This document shows, in pieces, positions 13,624 through 25,006 of a stretch of 64,000 bases of DNA; the first letter of the stretch is position 1; every line of letters starts with the position of its first letter. The translations under genes and the position numbers were made by a program. The stretch is taken from NCBI GenBank assembly GCA_963695095.1, contig CAVOFT010000001.1, forward strand, positions 1,280,001 through 1,344,000, given 5' to 3'. Source of the stretch: an uncultured bacterium (lineage in GTDB: Bacteria; Krumholzibacteriota; Krumholzibacteriia; JACNKJ01). The notes below the pieces were generated by a model that made no database searches, was not told where the DNA came from, and was given only the letters and a program-made list of their open reading frames with translations.

Positions 13624-14919
13624 ATGGCTGCTGCCGGCATCGATCGGGTCACGCGCCTGGTCGCCCTCTTCACGCTCGTCCTCGTCGCCCTGCTGCTGAC
13701 CGGCGGTTGGGTCTTCCATGCGCTGCTCGCCCGCGGCCTCGCCGACTCCAGCCGGCGCCACCTCGACGAGCAGGGCCGGCTCATCGCCGCTGCCCTCGCG
13801 GCCGATCCCGAGGGCCCGCTCGAGGCCTGGCGGCGGCTGGACCCCGAGGCGCTGCGCAGCGCGGCCACCCTGGATCGCCTGGAACTGCACGACGGCAACG
13901 GGCGCCCGCTCGCCGAGGATCCCCTCTGGCCGGCGCGCGAATTGCCGGACAGCCTGATCGCCGCGCTGCGCCTGGGCCTCGCCGTGGCGCCGCCGCCGCA
14001 GGCCGAGGGCGGCGAGCTCTTCCAGTCGCTGAGCCTGCCGCTGGCCGGGCCCGCGGGGGAACTCGCCGCCATTCTCGTGCTCGAATCGGGCGAGGCCGTC
14101 AGCACGCAGCTCCAGGCGCTGCGCCGCGGGCTGTGGACGGCCACCGGCCTCGGCGCGGGCTTCGTCGTCTTCGTCCTCGTGGCGATGGCCCTCATCCTGC
14201 GCCAGGCGCGACGCCGCCAGCGCGAGCTGGATCGGGCCGAACATCTGGCCGAGGTGGGCACGCTCGCGGCCGGACTCGCCCACGAGATCCGCAATCCCCT
14301 GGCCATCATCGCCGGCCATGCCGAGCTCTTCGAACTCCAGCGCAGCGGCGATCCCGACGAGGCCGCGCGTCGCGCCGGGGAGATCGTGGCGGAAACCGAG
14401 CGGCTGCGCCGGCTGCTGGACGACTTCCTCAGCTTCGCCCGACCCAGCGACCTGCGGCTCCGCCCGCTGGCCGCGCTCGAGGTCTGGGGCCGGCTCGTCG
14501 AAGAGCAGCGTCAGCTCCACCCGTCCCTGCGCTTCGAGCTGGCGGCCCCGCCCGCCCTGCCCCCGCTGACCGCCGATTCCGATCGCCTGCGCCAGCTCGC
14601 CCTCAATCTGCTGGCCAACGCCGCGCTCGCCGCGGGACCGGGCGGGCTGGTGCGCGTCGAGCTCTTTGCCCAGGGCGAGTGGCTGCGCTCGGTGATCCGT
14701 GACAGCGGTCCGGGCGTCCCCGCGGCGCTGGTGCCGCGCCTCTTCGCGCCCTTCGTCTCGGGCCGCGAGGGCGGCACGGGCCTGGGCCTGGCCGTCTGCG
14801 CCGCCATCGCCCGCGCCCATGGCGGCAGCCTGCGGCTCAGCGCCAATGGCCCCGGCGGCGCCGAATTCACACTGGAGCTGCCCCTCGCCGCGGCCGGGCC
14901 CGCGAAGGAGACCGCATGA
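13624..14919 (+). CDS. Membrane sensor histidine kinase
   Basis: Two TM segments flanking an extracytoplasmic domain; H-box LAHEIRNPL, N-box NLLANA, DSGPG, GTGLGLA. Confidence 0.92.
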   Translation: MAAAGIDRVTRLVALFTLVLVALLLTGGWVFHALLARGLADSSRRHLDEQGRLIAAALAADPEGPLEAWRRLDPEALRSAATLDRLELHDGNGRPLAEDPLWPARELPDSLIAALRLGLAVAPPPQAEGGELFQSLSLPLAGPAGELAAILVLESGEAVSTQLQALRRGLWTATGLGAGFVVFVLVAMALILRQARRRQRELDRAEHLAEVGTLAAGLAHEIRNPLAIIAGHAELFELQRSGDPDEAARRAGEIVAETERLRRLLDDFLSFARPSDLRLRPLAALEVWGRLVEEQRQLHPSLRFELAAPPALPPLTADSDRLRQLALNLLANAALAAGPGGLVRVELFAQGEWLRSVIRDSGPGVPAALVPRLFAPFVSGREGGTGLGLAVCAAIARAHGGSLRLSANGPGGAEFTLELPLAAAGPAKETA

Positions 14920-16295
14920 GCCAGCGCATCCTGATCGTCGACGACGAGCCCAAGCTCGCGGCCCTGCTCGCCGAGACCCTGGCCGCTCCCGGCCGCGAGA
15001 TCGCCGTCGCGCACAGCGCGGCCGCGGCCTGGACCGCCTTCGCGGCCGCGCCCGCGGATCTCGTCATCACGGATCTGCGCATGGAGAGCGAGGAGGCGGG
15101 ACTGGCGCTCATCGAGCGGCTGCGCAGCGCCGCGCCGGGCACGCGGACGATGCTGGTCACCGCCTTCGCCAGCATCGAGGCCGGCGTGCGCGCGCTCGAG
15201 CTCGGCGCGGCGGAGTACCTCGTCAAGCCCGTGCGCCTGCGCGCCCTGCGCGAGAGCGTCGATCGCCTGCTCGCCCCGCCGACGGCCGCGGCGGGCCTTG
15301 CCCTGGCCACGGAGGGCGAGCTGGCCGGCGCCTTCGACGATATCCTCGTCGGCGGCCATCCCGGGATGCGGCGCATCGTGGAGCTGCTGCCCCGCGTGGT
15401 GGCCAGCGACTCGACGGTACTCATCATGGGCGAGAGCGGCACCGGCAAGGAGGTGCTGGCCAGGGCGATTCACGCCCACGGGCCGCGGCGGGCGAAGCCC
15501 TTCGTCCGCGTCAATTGCGCGGCGCTCGTGGAGAGCCTGCTCGAGGCCGAGCTCTTCGGCATCGAGGCGGGCGTGGCCACCGACGTGAAGGCGCGGCCCG
15601 GCAAGTTCGAGCTGGCCGCGGGCGGCACGCTGTTGCTCGACGAGATCGGCGACATGGCGCCGGGCACCCAGGCCAAGGTGCTGCGCGTGCTCCAGGAGCG
15701 CGAGTTCGAGCGCGTGGGCGGCGCCCAGACCCTGCGCGTGGACCTGCGCGTGCTGGCCGCCACGCATTGCGACTTGCAGGGGATGGTGGCCGCGGGCCAC
15801 TTCCGGGGCGATCTCTACTATCGACTCGACGTGATCCGGCTGGAGCTGCCGCCGCTGCGCGAGCGCCTGGGGGATCTCGAGCTCTTCCTGCGCTACTTCC
15901 TGCAGAAGCTCTCCGCCCGCAGCGGCCGCCGCATCGCCGGGCTCACGCCCGCCGCCCTCGAGCGCCTGCGCCGGCACGCCTGGCCCGGCAACATCCGCGA
16001 GCTGGAGAACGTCCTCGAGCGGGCCATGGTGCTCGCCGCCGGCGACCAGATCGATGTCGGCGACCTGCCCTCGCTGACGGCGCCGCCGGCGACGGCCGAG
16101 GCGGCGGAGCACCCCTTCGTGCTGCCGGCAGCGGGGATCGAGCTGGAGGCGCTGGAGCGCGACCTGATCGGCCAGGCCCTGGCCCGCACGGGCGGGAACA
16201 AGAGCGCGGCGGCGCGCCTGCTCGGGCTCACCCGGCGCACCCTGGGCTATCGGCTCGAGAAGCACGGGCTCGATCGGGCGGGGGAGGGCGACTGA
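14916..16295 (+). CDS. sigma54-dependent response regulator (REC-AAA+-HTH)
   Basis: ILIVDDE...ITDLRM receiver; [24 protein letters not shown]; Fis-type HTH; L1 loop reads GVATDV; ATGA overlap with kinase. Confidence 0.92.
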
Positions 16296-18709: not shown

Positions 18710-20098
18710 ATGAGCGCGCGTCTACTCGTGGTCGACGATGAAGCCGGGATCCGCGAGTCCCTCGGCAAGGTCCTGCGCTATGAGGGCTTCACGGTGGAGA
18801 CGGCCCCGGACGGCCCCACGGCGCTCGCGCTCGCCGCGCGCCAGCCCTTCGACCTCGTCTTCCTCGACGTCAAGATGCCCGGCATGGACGGTCTGGAAGT
18901 GCTCGCCCGGCTGGGCGAGGGCGGCCTGGCGACGCCCGTCGTCATCATCTCCGGCCACGGCACCATCGATACCGCGGTGCAGGCGACCAAGCTCGGCGCC
19001 TTCGACTTCCTGGAGAAGCCCCTCGACGCGGACCGCGTTCTCGTCACTCTGCGCAATGCCCTGGCCTGGCTGGAGCAGCAGCGGCAGATCGAATCCCTGC
19101 GCCAGCGCCTGGGCGAAGGCGAGCAGATCATCGGGGAGAGCCAGGCCGTCAAACTGCTCCTGAAGGCCATCGAGCGGGTGGCGCCGACGGATGCGCGCGT
19201 GCTCATCACGGGAGAGAACGGCTCCGGCAAGGAACTCGTGGCGCGGCGCATTCACCGCTTGAGCGCGCGGGCCGAGGGGCCCTTCGTGGATGTCAACTGC
19301 GCGGCGATTCCGAACGAGCTGATCGAGAGCGAGCTCTTCGGTCACGAGAAGGGGAGCTTCACGGGCGCCCACCAGCAGCGGATGGGTCGTTTCGAGCAGG
19401 CGGACGGGGGCACGCTCTTCCTCGACGAGATCGGCGATATGTCCCTGAGCGCCCAGGCAAAGGTGCTCCGCGTGCTACAGGAGGGAAAGTTCGAGCGGGT
19501 CGGGGGGACCATCACCCAGCAGGTGAACGTGCGGGTGATCGCAGCGACCAACAAGGACCTGCTCGCGGAAGCGGCGGAGAACCGCTTCCGCGAAGACCTC
19601 TACTATCGCCTCAGCGTGGTGCCCCTGCAGGTGCCCCCGCTCAGGGAGCGGCCCGAGGATATCCCCTTGCTGGCCAAGCACTTCACGGAGCTGTATCTCC
19701 GCGAGCAGGGGATGCGGCCCCGGCTGTTCGCGCCTGCCGCCCTGGAGCGACTCCAGGGCGCCCGCTGGCCCGGCAATATCCGCGAGCTGCGCAACCTCGT
19801 GGAGCGGCTCCTGATCATGGCGCCGGGCGAGCGCATTGAAGTGGAGGACATCCCCCTGCCGGGGGGCGAAGCGGCGGGTGAGGAGAGCGGCCTCTTCGCC
19901 GCCGCCAGTTTCCAGGCCTTCAAGGAGCGCAGCGAGGCGGTCTTCCTGGCGCGAAAACTGAAGGAGTACGGCGGCAACGTCAGCCGCACGGCCCGCGCCT
20001 TGCAAATGCAGCGGAGCAATCTCTACAAGAAGATTGAAAAATATGGACTTACGGCCGGGAAGCCCGATCCCGACGAAGCCGCCGACGACCCCGAGTAG
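18710..20098 (+). CDS. sigma54-dependent response regulator (NtrX/NtrC-like)
   Basis: Receiver LVVDDE...[49 protein letters not shown]. Confidence 0.93.
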   Translation: MSARLLVVDDEAGIRESLGKVLRYEGFTVETAPDGPTALALAARQPFDLVFLDVKMPGMDGLEVLARLGEGGLATPVVIISGHGTIDTAVQATKLGAFDFLEKPLDADRVLVTLRNALAWLEQQRQIESLRQRLGEGEQIIGESQAVKLLLKAIERVAPTDARVLITGENGSGKELVARRIHRLSARAEGPFVDVNCAAIPNELIESELFGHEKGSFTGAHQQRMGRFEQADGGTLFLDEIGDMSLSAQAKVLRVLQEGKFERVGGTITQQVNVRVIAATNKDLLAEAAENRFREDLYYRLSVVPLQVPPLRERPEDIPLLAKHFTELYLREQGMRPRLFAPAALERLQGARWPGNIRELRNLVERLLIMAPGERIEVEDIPLPGGEAAGEESGLFAAASFQAFKERSEAVFLARKLKEYGGNVSRTARALQMQRSNLYKKIEKYGLTAGKPDPDEAADDPE

Positions 20099-20582: not shown

Positions 20583-20639
20583 GAAGAACGCCGTAGCCAT
20601 CTTCCTCAGAGTGCGTCCACCCCACACGAGGACGAATCG

Positions 20640-23624
<2,985 letters not shown>

Positions 23625-23662
23625 GCAGCAAGGCTCTCTCGGCGACGCGCCGGCTATTCCGC

Positions 23663-23690
23663 GGGCCCGGTCACACCGGGCCCTTCTGCT
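23663..23690 (+). terminator. Putative terminator hairpin after the TPR activator
   Basis: GGGCCCGGT-CAC-ACCGGGCCC followed by TTCTGCT. Confidence 0.5.
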
Positions 23691-23899
23691 TGGCGCTCAC
23701 AAGCTCGTTGCGTAGCGGCAGCCGACCTCCACCTTTTCTCCCAGGCGCCAAAGCCTCTGGCGACTTGAGCTTGCCCGCTCTAGCCGCCGGCAATCTAAAG
23801 AATCTTGCGCAAGTCCATGTCGGTGTACTCTGGCGCTGCGAATCGCCCATGCAAGTGGCTCATTTGCAAGGGGATAAATCCCCCGATCGCGAGCGGTTA

Positions 23900-23915
23900 T
23901 GGCATGCTCCCTGCA
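23900..23915 (+). promoter_or_regulatory. sigma54 (-24/-12) promoter
   Basis: TGGCAT-GCTCC-CTGCA, GG-N10-GC exact; preceded by palindromic, more AT-rich elements at 23790-23885. Confidence 0.75.
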
Positions 23916-23925
23916 GTTGAACGCT

Positions 23926-24196
23926 TGAAGTGAGGAGGGCGCCAGGCTTGGCAGGTATGAGGCTCTTTCCAAGCTTCCTCGAGGGACTCGAACGGAATTG
24001 ATAGGGGAAGTCAGCCGGATTCGATGTCGTTCCTCGGGCCGATCGGAAGCGTCCGATGAGTCGATTGACTCGGTCCTTGCGTGAAGTGTGGGGCAACACG
24101 CCAGGGCAATCGGCGAGTCCGATCGAAGGAGATGTACTCCTCTCCTTGATGCTGAGATGTGCGAGGCAGGAGGGCGCAAGCCCTCTTGCCTTTTTT
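23926..24196 (+). ncRNA. Candidate sigma54-dependent structured RNA (~270 nt), family not recognised
   Basis: Bounded by the sigma54 promoter and an intrinsic terminator; no long ORF fits inside; at least five short hairpins. Confidence 0.55.
24164..24196 (+). terminator. Rho-independent terminator
   Basis: AGGCAGGAGGGC-GCAA-GCCCTCTTGCCT stem with GNRA loop followed by a T-run. Confidence 0.85.
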
Positions 24197-24300
24197 GATG
24201 CGAGTCGGCCGCTGAGCTCACCTTGCCGGCTTCTGCCATCGACCATGCCGGGCCGGCATGGGGGACAATGGGATCCTCTTTTCTGCGATCCCGTCTAGGC

Positions 24301-24329
24301 TTGACCCTCCTTTGTGAATGCTCTAACTT
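24301..24329 (+). promoter_or_regulatory. Putative sigma70 promoter of the act operon
   Basis: TTGACC-N17-TAACTT, 8 nt before ATG 24338. Confidence 0.45.
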
Positions 24330-24337
24330 GCGCCCCC

Positions 24338-25006
24338 ATGCAGAGCAGCAGACCGCGCGGCCGAGTCCTGTTCCCTCCCTGGACCAACGCCATTCGCCCG
24401 CTGGCGACGGTGGCGATCTTGGGCGGCCTTCTGTACACGGTTGTCTTGATCGCCTACGCCACCTCGCCCCGGACCACGAACGTCGGCTATGCTCCGACCC
24501 AGCCCGTGCTCTACAGCCACGCGCTCCACGTGGGTACCCTCGGCCTGGACTGCCGCTACTGCCACCTGGGCGTCGAGACCGGGGCCAAGGCGACCCTGCC
24601 ACCCACGCAAACCTGCATGAACTGCCACGCGAGTGTGCGCAGCGCCAGCGAGAAGCTGGCGCCCGTCCTCGCGAGCTACGCGACGGGGATGCCCATCCCC
24701 TGGGTGCGGGTGCACGACCTGCCCGATTTCGCCTACTTCGACCATAGTGCCCATGTGCGCCGCGGCGTGGGTTGCGCCTCCTGTCATGGCCGCATCGATC
24801 AAATGGAGGTGGTGAGCCAGGTCGAGCCCTTGCACATGGGTTGGTGCCTGGACTGCCATCGCCGGCCCGAGCCTCACCTGCGGCCGCTCGCCGCCGTCAC
24901 CGCCATGGACTGGGCGCCGGCAGGCGATCCGGTAGCGCTGGGCGCCGAGCTTCGCCGGGAGTACAACATCCAACCGCCGACGGACTGTTCCACATGTCAT
25001 CGTTAG
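24338..25006 (+). CDS. actA: Alternative complex III pentaheme cytochrome c ActA
   Basis: N-terminal TM; five CxxCH motifs (CRYCH, CMNCH, CASCH, CLDCH, CSTCH); start could alternatively be 24314. Confidence 0.92.
   Translation: MQSSRPRGRVLFPPWTNAIRPLATVAILGGLLYTVVLIAYATSPRTTNVGYAPTQPVLYSHALHVGTLGLDCRYCHLGVETGAKATLPPTQTCMNCHASVRSASEKLAPVLASYATGMPIPWVRVHDLPDFAYFDHSAHVRRGVGCASCHGRIDQMEVVSQVEPLHMGWCLDCHRRPEPHLRPLAAVTAMDWAPAGDPVALGAELRREYNIQPPTDCSTCHR

Follow-up and report, generated by a model that had tools for sequence, protein, structure and literature searches.

A conserved structured RNA next to a TPR-type sigma-54 activator gene in the Krumholzibacteriia

The enterobacterial small RNA GlmY depends on sigma-54 together with the activator GlrR. 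The Qrr small RNAs of Vibrio are likewise LuxO- and sigma-54-dependent, according to excerpts of 10.1101/2021.07.01.450815. Passages of PMC8871633 describe crcZ as a separate unit directly downstream of cbrB, sigma-54-dependent, CbrB-activated and with synteny kept across the family. In excerpts of PMC5568312, the pxr gene of Myxococcus xanthus is intergenic, lying just downstream of the sigma-54 activator gene nla19. Its predicted sigma-54 promoter is placed there ~260 nt past nla19 and a respiratory-type gene follows; the RNA has multiple stem-loops and occurs in one lineage. Here we report on an RNA encoded within a 64,000-nt stretch of DNA from an uncultured member of the Krumholzibacteriia (the window; GCA_963695095.1, contig CAVOFT010000001.1, positions 1,280,001 to 1,344,000), whose own numbering is used throughout. 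The RNA follows the gene of a sigma-54 enhancer-binding protein with a TPR domain, hereafter the TPR activator. Positions 23926–24196 probably constitute an independent non-coding RNA gene, the product of which would be an activator-driven riboregulator working in trans through G-rich loops and a 3' tail.

Promoter, fold and occurrence of the RNA

The original prediction had proposed an unannotated, sigma-54-dependent structured RNA of ~270 nt at this site. That proposal is supported by the invariance of the -24/-12 promoter, the covariation of the fold, the terminator, the presence of rpoN and RNA-library contigs confined to the RNA body. The reference genome (3.64 Mb in 2 contigs, 93.5% complete), in which the window is high in G+C, was found by genome search to encode rpoN. 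The RNA and its boundaries are:

23926–24196, plus strand: non-coding RNA of ~271 nt, 5' end predicted, 3' end at the terminator T-run
23900–23915, plus strand: sigma-54 (-24/-12) promoter TGGCAT-GCTCC-CTGCA, with TGGCAT at 23900–23905, a 5-nt spacer and CTGCA at 23911–23915
24163–24196, plus strand: intrinsic terminator from a terminator scan, a 13-pair stem (24163–24192) with a GCAA loop, then a T-run

The TGGCAT-N5-CTGCA promoter was present as originally read and proved invariant in relatives: TGGCAY-N5-NTGC is kept in all 14 loci of the family that have upstream DNA, while the sequence 5' of it is not conserved. Counting from the GC at 23913–14 by what we take to be the usual promoter geometry, the predicted start falls near 23926. 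The GNRA-capped terminator was recovered too. The region holds 3 terminator-like sites versus 0.8 in shuffles, and the terminator stem covaries, with 6 of 12 pairs changed on both sides (helix 11 of an 11-copy alignment). Sequence 3' of the T-run is not conserved among the 11 copies and, blocks before actA aside, nothing is kept up to that gene. For the 271-nt stretch the predicted folding energy is -125.6 kcal/mol (z = -4.2); none of 200 shuffles was as stable.

The 11-sequence set comprised blastn copies (its own genome once, and 6 of 40 relatives) and 4 new copies from a metagenome pattern search. A pattern of two invariant blocks matched 4 loci in species genomes, all already among the copies and one titled Candidatus Krumholzibacteriota; the same kind of pattern matched 6 metagenome loci, including the 4 new ones. 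Pairwise identity among the 11 distinct sequences was 51–87%, the RNA body consisting of invariant blocks between variable stretches. RNAalifold returned 75 pairs, 29 of them with compensatory changes. In the MAFFT alignment with the long-range helix P4 included, 88.8% of cells were paired. Both sides had changed in 37 of 90 pairs, compared to 19.3 ± 2.8 in shuffles (0 of 500 reached this) and 9–22 in slid controls. A covariance model of 148 positions, covering domains 2 and 3 only, found exactly one copy in 11 of the 12 genomes of the order, and four divergent copies from one genus of the family (g3) at E values of 1e-8 to 1e-11. The g3 copies share promoter, neighbours, terminator and architecture, with different helix sequences. 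Each of the 11 copies and 4 g3 copies yielded the three-way junction when folded alone. Fitting all 15 copies to the model gave an alignment (A5) biased towards the structure of its own model, in which 90.7% of cells were paired, 34 of 54 pairs had changed on both sides and both-side changes occupied 114 cells (36.5 ± 4.9 in shuffles). Covariation across homologous regions, suggested as a check on the original prediction, was thus strong and fell within one multi-domain fold:

23927–23977, plus strand: domain 1, helices P1 and P2, capped by AGGCUUGGCAGGUAUG (23944–23959), which is nearly invariant in the main group
23978–24038, plus strand: domain 2, long-range helix P3 (23978–85 with 24031–38) enclosing a hairpin with the loop AGGGGAA (24003–24009)
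24040–24125, plus strand: domain 3, a three-way junction of a variable closing helix P4 (24040–56 with 24110–25) and hairpins P5 and P6
24058–24071, plus strand: P5, small hairpin GAGTC-GATT-GACTC, 4 of 5 pairs changed on both sides (A5)
24073–24107, plus strand: P6, long hairpin with the invariant GUGGGGCA (24088–24095) in its loop, 7 of 13 pairs changed on both sides (A5)
24126–24147, plus strand: P7 (helix 10), hairpin AAGGAGA/TCTCCTT of a purine strand and a CUCCUCU strand, with compensatory changes
24148–24162, plus strand: 3' tail GAUGCUGAGAUGUGC, predicted single-stranded, its core UGCUGAGA kept in 14 of 15 copies

Both-side changes also affected 7 of 9 pairs in helix 2 of domain 1 and, in A5, 7 of 8 pairs of P3 (helix 1) and all 8 pairs of P4a. 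The GGGG of the domain 2 loop is invariant, the loop reading CGGGGGAC in g3. This genus has CCAACC-UCC-GGUUGG in place of P7, and in its one deviating copy the tail core reads UGCUGAAA. The never-changing nucleotides lie in loops and the 3' tail, as is expected of contact surfaces. Two of the five hairpins first described (P5 and P7) withstood comparison through their compensatory changes. The other three (TCGAG-GGA-CTCGA, ATCGGA-AGCG-TCCGAT and ATCGG-CGAGT-CCGAT) are foldable here only, since relatives put those strands in the long-range helices P3 and P4. The pyrimidine tracts likened to an anti-Shine-Dalgarno sequence are present but form helix strands, and the P7 tract is not kept in one genus (CCAACC/GGUUGG).

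No known RNA family was recognized in the original prediction, and the Rfam scan found none either. Rfam 15 (4227 models) at gathering scores gave 0 matches over the whole window; at E ≤ 10 over 23600–24400 it gave only 2 junk matches, both outside the RNA body. The models presumably include those for Pxr, CrcZ, Qrr, GlmY, 6S, tmRNA, RNase P, SRP and riboswitches. Text searches, partly poorly designed, for literature on Krumholzibacteriota with RNA regulators or sigma-54 found no relevant paper. The feature is real, and neither Rfam 15 nor the literature searched contains it.

Matching sequence was present in 20 sequencing runs from 12 studies. The 18 runs recorded as RNA contained 13–20% of the sampled words of 23700–24400. 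A single short whole contig was obtained from each of four RNA runs (4 studies); their lengths are 221, 227, 188 and 224 nt, and each has 4–5 differences. All four start at 23937–23942 and three end at 24160–24162; they span 23937/42–24121/62 only, with no loose ends and nothing on the flanks of the RNA body. These uncovered flanks were not taken as evidence of absence. Differences shared by the contigs at 24037, 24042 and 24122 preserve base pairs when read by eye against the structure. The contigs do no more than hint at a transcript that is discrete and fairly abundant. On the proposed metatranscriptome check, contigs from 4 studies are confined to the RNA body and, being assembled, provide no end mapping.

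Linkage to the TPR activator across the class

The genes and candidate sites on either side of the RNA are:

18710–20098, plus strand: response-regulator-type sigma-54 activator gene (Pfam Response_reg, Sigma54_activat and HTH_8)
20640–23624, plus strand: TPR activator gene, 994 aa, enhancer-binding protein with TPR, sigma-54-interaction AAA+ and Fis-type HTH regions (Pfam)
23796–23808, strand not assigned: TAAAG-N3-CTTTA, a degenerate palindrome ~104 nt 5' of the -24 element and a weak candidate for an upstream activator site
24301–24329, plus strand: promoter-like blocks of the act operon, TTGACC-17 nt-TAACTT, ending 8 nt before the actA ATG

Wherever a family locus includes upstream DNA (14 of 14), the gene immediately before the RNA is that of the TPR activator (Sigma54_activat 9.5e-65, TPR_12 8.9e-35, AAA_lid_14 and HTH_8). 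The gene on the 3' side varies across 15 family loci: the act operon in 11, clpB in 2 and others in 2. In this genome it is the act operon, encoding ActA, ActB and ActC (alternative complex III), then SCO1, cytochrome c, COX1 and CtaA, with the actA ATG at 24338. All 11 loci with actA downstream have TTGAC, 17 nt, then TAACTT or TAGTTT. These blocks, not called by a simple sigma-70 promoter scan of the region, resemble the Bacteroidota -33/-7 promoter type. They look like the act operon's own promoter, in which case the act mRNA would have little or no leader. The RNA is missing from a single genome of the order, G005, where the activator is a 534-aa TPR-only frame followed directly by actA (L084, G005:C11:671012–675517). 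The RNA has gone along with the AAA+/HTH half, and a single deletion appears to have taken both. With the activator upstream in 14 of 14 loci, a variable gene downstream, actA carrying its own blocks and the joint loss in G005, gene order indicates that the RNA is tied to the activator and not to the act operon.

The same observations bear on whether the element is a cis-acting leader, attenuator or riboswitch controlling read-through from the sigma-54 promoter into the act operon, an alternative offered in the original prediction. It is true that the act operon follows in most of the family loci, that 141 nt separate the terminator of the structured RNA from actA, and that part of the 5' arm of this terminator could, as seen by eye, pair with the pyrimidine strand just upstream. 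However, clpB or another gene stands downstream in 4 of 15 loci and actA in 0 of 16 loci of other families. The conserved blocks before actA would give the operon a promoter of its own, and the interval between terminator and actA is otherwise not conserved. The library contigs, which stop by 24162, add a weak point on the same side. We consider such a leader very unlikely.

Homologues of the TPR activator (~1015–1060 aa) occur in 118 of 121 genomes of the class. A model of domains 2 and 3 from the family of this RNA (f1) found nothing convincing in 139 genomes of the eight other families (f2–f9), with 2 marginal matches, one in coding-like sequence. The DNA downstream of the activator stop was examined in 16 genomes of f2–f9. 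A strict sigma-54 promoter lies 199–275 nt past the stop in 7 of the 16 loci and a GG-N10-GC variant (at least 8 of 11 consensus matches) 201–319 nt past it in 7 more, so that a promoter-like GG-N10-GC site is found in 14 of 16, at 199–319 nt. One locus is N-masked inside the RNA-like stretch that follows; GUGGGG occurs in this stretch in 14 of the 15 readable loci, and 13 read GGUGGGGUC. All 6 folded copies and the f5/f8 consensus carry the motif in the loop of a hairpin; for the other loci this hairpin was recognized by eye only. The loop sequence is GAGGUG or AGGUG in most families. None of the promoter or RNA features was found at the G081 locus, and 15 of 16 loci show a sigma-54-like site, an RNA-like stretch with a (G)GUGGGG motif, or both. 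Rfam 15 at E ≤ 0.01 gave 0 matches in the 16 loci. Blastn with three of these RNAs matched 17 of 20 genomes in f5, 10 of 10 in f8, 10 of 26 in f4 and 10 of 31 in f2, on the same contig and strand and ~1.6–1.9 kb after the N-terminal match of the activator. In four f5/f8 copies the 3' domain is laid out like domain 3: its closing helix covaries, and it has one small hairpin and one long hairpin with a GGUGGGG cap. We read this as one fast-evolving RNA family, apparently coupled to the activator across the class.

Another small, conserved element was noted at three f4/f7 loci (L140, L144 and L145, in G039, G056 and G044), where ~250–330 nt past the GGUGGGG hairpin there is a hairpin whose loop reads UGGCGAGAU, followed by GGACAUCCCCUCCGG. 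In G039 and G056 the UGGCGAGAU element is preceded by TTGACA/TTGACC-N17-TAnnAT. The hairpin also occurs inside the longer f6 and f2 RNAs and resembles the UGCUGAGAU tail of the RNA described here; it has no Rfam match.

A second module of the same design lies outside the window, on the minus strand of contig C1 of the reference genome (G000) at ~2666400–2671980 (L071). It consists of a gene for a 1589-aa protein with TPR, sigma-54 AAA+ and HTH regions, then TGGCACGCATCCTGCC (C1:2666602), then an RNA of ~165 nt. This RNA has its own terminator, a fold z of -3.5 and an invariant loop reading AUGGGGAC. Ten of the 12 genomes of the order keep this promoter and RNA, among them G005, where the first RNA is missing. 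Against Rfam at E ≤ 1 the second RNA gave no match besides two junk ones.

The palindrome TAAAG-N3-CTTTA upstream of the first RNA was considered as a site for the activator. In the main group, 8 of 10 loci have a copy with up to 2 mismatches, placed 103–127 nt upstream of the -24 element. Over all loci a copy is present in 12 of 14, compared to a mean of 1.4 in shuffles, for a motif defined by eye on the very sequences counted. In g3 and the second locus, a copy is merely the top of a terminator hairpin, and the palindrome was set aside as weak. Genes with a Sigma54_activat domain are numerous in G000, with 25 matches over the cut-off and 20 at E < 1e-26, or about 20 strong ones. Three lie within 8 kb upstream of the RNA (14916–16295, 18710–20098 and 20640–23624).

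Mode of action and alternative explanations

Sigma-54 promoters require an ATP-driven activator, and on this ground we propose that transcription of the RNA is activator-switched. Sigma-54 RNA polymerase would bind the -24/-12 promoter at 23900–23915. The TPR-type enhancer-binding protein encoded immediately upstream would then switch transcription on in response to a signal sensed by its TPR domain; from the conserved gene order, it is likely that this protein is the activator of the RNA promoter. The transcript would end at its own intrinsic terminator and fold into three domains, a hairpin and a free 3' tail. That it acts in trans is, we believe, highly likely. The never-changing nucleotides would make the contacts: the G-rich apical loops (GGGG in domain 2 and GUGGGG on P6; GGUGGGG outside the family) and, for this family, the tail core UGCUGAGA. 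Base-pairing with C/U-rich mRNA leaders would be, as base-pairing was among the modes offered in the original prediction, the most likely mode, held tentatively and at slightly less than even confidence.

Four conserved RNA segments were searched for duplexes against 2677 crude gene starts of one genome. The best duplex of the tail was with the leader of a Bac_transf gene (C1:1998336–1999064, minus strand), at -30.2 kcal/mol and rank 1 of 2677. Bac_transf is the first gene of a polysaccharide operon; there is also a Poly_export gene with its own sigma-54-like site upstream. The tail is predicted to pair with the leader blocks CAUCUCAGC and AUCGAGGAG, the latter the Shine-Dalgarno sequence, with the tail stretch GCUGAGAUG opposite CAUCUCAGC. 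Block CAUCUCAGC is kept in 6 of 7 main-group genomes. The g3 leaders have GCCCCACUC there instead, nine nucleotides complementary to the P6 loop of g3 itself, and in G005, which is without the RNA, neither leader site is present. The ribosome-binding site of this polysaccharide-priming sugar transferase operon is the sole named candidate target, and on this evidence an unlikely one. We did not accept it as established: conservation extends over the whole leader, and G003 and G007 carry changes that do not compensate, so that it is only a lead. As an observation in its own right, the Bac_transf leader (~130 nt; L088, G000 C1:1998336–1999264; L089–L093 and L099–L103) is strongly conserved across the family, and in G000 it also contains UCCCCAUG, the complement of the second RNA's loop.

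Feedback on the activator's own mRNA was rejected as a general mechanism. In the TPR activator leader (20585–20640), CGUCC...GGACG forms a small hairpin that holds CCCCAC in the loop and immediately precedes a Shine-Dalgarno-like GAGGA. This CCCCAC complements the P6 loop GUGGGG, and all 7 of the 7 main-group genomes have it. None of 18 leaders from f4, f5 and f8 does, and the hexamer occurs in 47 of the 2677 start regions, about the chance level. Two further candidates were dropped. Pairing of the P6 loop with the actA start region relies on a C-run of G000 that is not kept in relatives, and the AGGCUUG block common to RNA loop 1 and the Bac_transf leader has a 7-mer core near chance.

Several points weigh against a base-pairing RNA driven by the TPR activator. 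Gene linkage is what joins activator and promoter, and the response-regulator activator is also a conserved neighbour (its orthologue lies upstream in 6 main-group relatives and in G005), in a genome with ~20 such genes. The loss in G005 is one deletion and not a set of independent losses. Position, promoter and one short loop motif connect f1 to the other families, whose RNAs the f1 model does not detect. The target prediction put the Bac_transf leader first, yet 25 of 60 shuffled seeds match -30.2 kcal/mol somewhere in the genome and the result is not significant. The P6 loop ranks only 391 of 2677 against the activator's own leader, and CCCCAC is absent from all 18 other-family leaders. Neither Hfq nor ProQ was found in the genome, at 93.5% completeness. 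The assembled contigs, silent on strand, ends and level and drawn from RNA runs only, give a weak hint.

Part of this evidence would fit an RNA that sequesters or recruits a conserved protein, such as a small RRM protein or part of the translation machinery, through its G-rich loops and without mRNA pairing. The fold is large with only short invariant loop motifs fixed across the class, the helices vary freely, and no mRNA target is statistically convincing. G000 encodes three small RRM_1 proteins in addition to having no Hfq or ProQ found, and the GAGGUG/AGGUG loop of most families resembles, in our reading, a Shine-Dalgarno sequence. CrcZ, itself a sigma-54-driven RNA, is a protein sponge binding Hfq/Crc in the portions of PMC8871633 that treat it. 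However, each RNA carries only two or three copies of a G-rich motif, unlike the many repeats typical of sponges, and the candidate partner protein remains putative. Protein capture appears unlikely to us. Less probable again is that the dedicated and ancient output of the activator is a structured RNA whose invariant GGUGGGG loop (a Shine-Dalgarno-like GAGGUG in most families) captures a conserved protein or the anti-Shine-Dalgarno sequence of the ribosome in place of an mRNA. If true, this would, with the second activator–RNA pair, amount to a previously undescribed kind of RNA signalling layer that is free of Hfq.

The CsrA/RsmA-titrating sponge put forward in the original prediction fared less well still. 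The genome does encode csrA, and the ~8 GGA motifs are there by count, one of them invariant in a hairpin loop. Yet 8 is the chance level (6.2 ± 2.1 in shuffles, 27% of which reach 8), and 1 of the 8 is conserved in all 11 aligned copies, in the loop GGGGAA. The check for csrA and hfq located csrA directly after fliW, and no Hfq. In the csrA-fliW arrangement it is FliW, not an RNA, that antagonises CsrA. A sponge of this type is thus most improbable. Hardly any weight can be given to a small-protein mRNA or to a chance promoter–terminator pair without function. An 80-codon frame (24056–24298) overlaps the region, but it crosses the terminator, relatives lack its sole ATG or have GTG there, and 1-nt indels are found throughout the alignment, so that no reading frame in the RNA is conserved. 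Conservation, covariation and the RNA-library contigs speak against a chance pair.

Comparison with described systems

Regulatory RNAs are essentially uncharted in candidate phyla sampled through metagenomics alone, and here comparative evidence alone ties an RNA to a specific signalling protein. The RNA is conserved across the class and detectable in estuary, sediment and aquatic metatranscriptomes; class-wide linkage and visibility in environmental RNA both raise its interest. It would be a ready marker of pathway activity in the environment, and it would make a clean test case of a sigma-54 activator of the TPR type, not a response regulator. A link between sigma-54 signalling and surface-polysaccharide synthesis is possible.

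Pxr is closest in layout. The activator stop at 23624, the promoter at 23900 and the act operon after it reproduce the order given for pxr in the excerpts of PMC5568312. Pxr as described there has 108 nt, three stem-loops and a response-regulator activator, whereas the RNA here has ~271 nt, a three-way junction and a TPR-type activator, and belongs to another phylum. Because no Rfam model matches the RNA at E ≤ 10, Pxr is best regarded as an analogue and not as a detectable homologue. CrcZ/CrcY of Pseudomonas (CbrA-CbrB) share the placement of an RNA unit directly after a sigma-54 activator gene (passages of PMC8871633). In the same passages CrcZ sequesters Hfq/Crc by repeated A-rich motifs; the RNA here has few G-rich motifs, no Hfq was found in its genome, and it has no match by sequence or model. 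Qrr and GlmY are trans-acting RNAs that depend on sigma-54 and an activator and form the main output of a signalling pathway, as is proposed here. They are shorter, Hfq- or RapZ-linked, proteobacterial and under response-regulator activators, and the RNA here has no Rfam match. By analogy, then, the RNA resembles CrcZ, Pxr, Qrr and GlmY in kind, while being larger and paired with a TPR-type activator.

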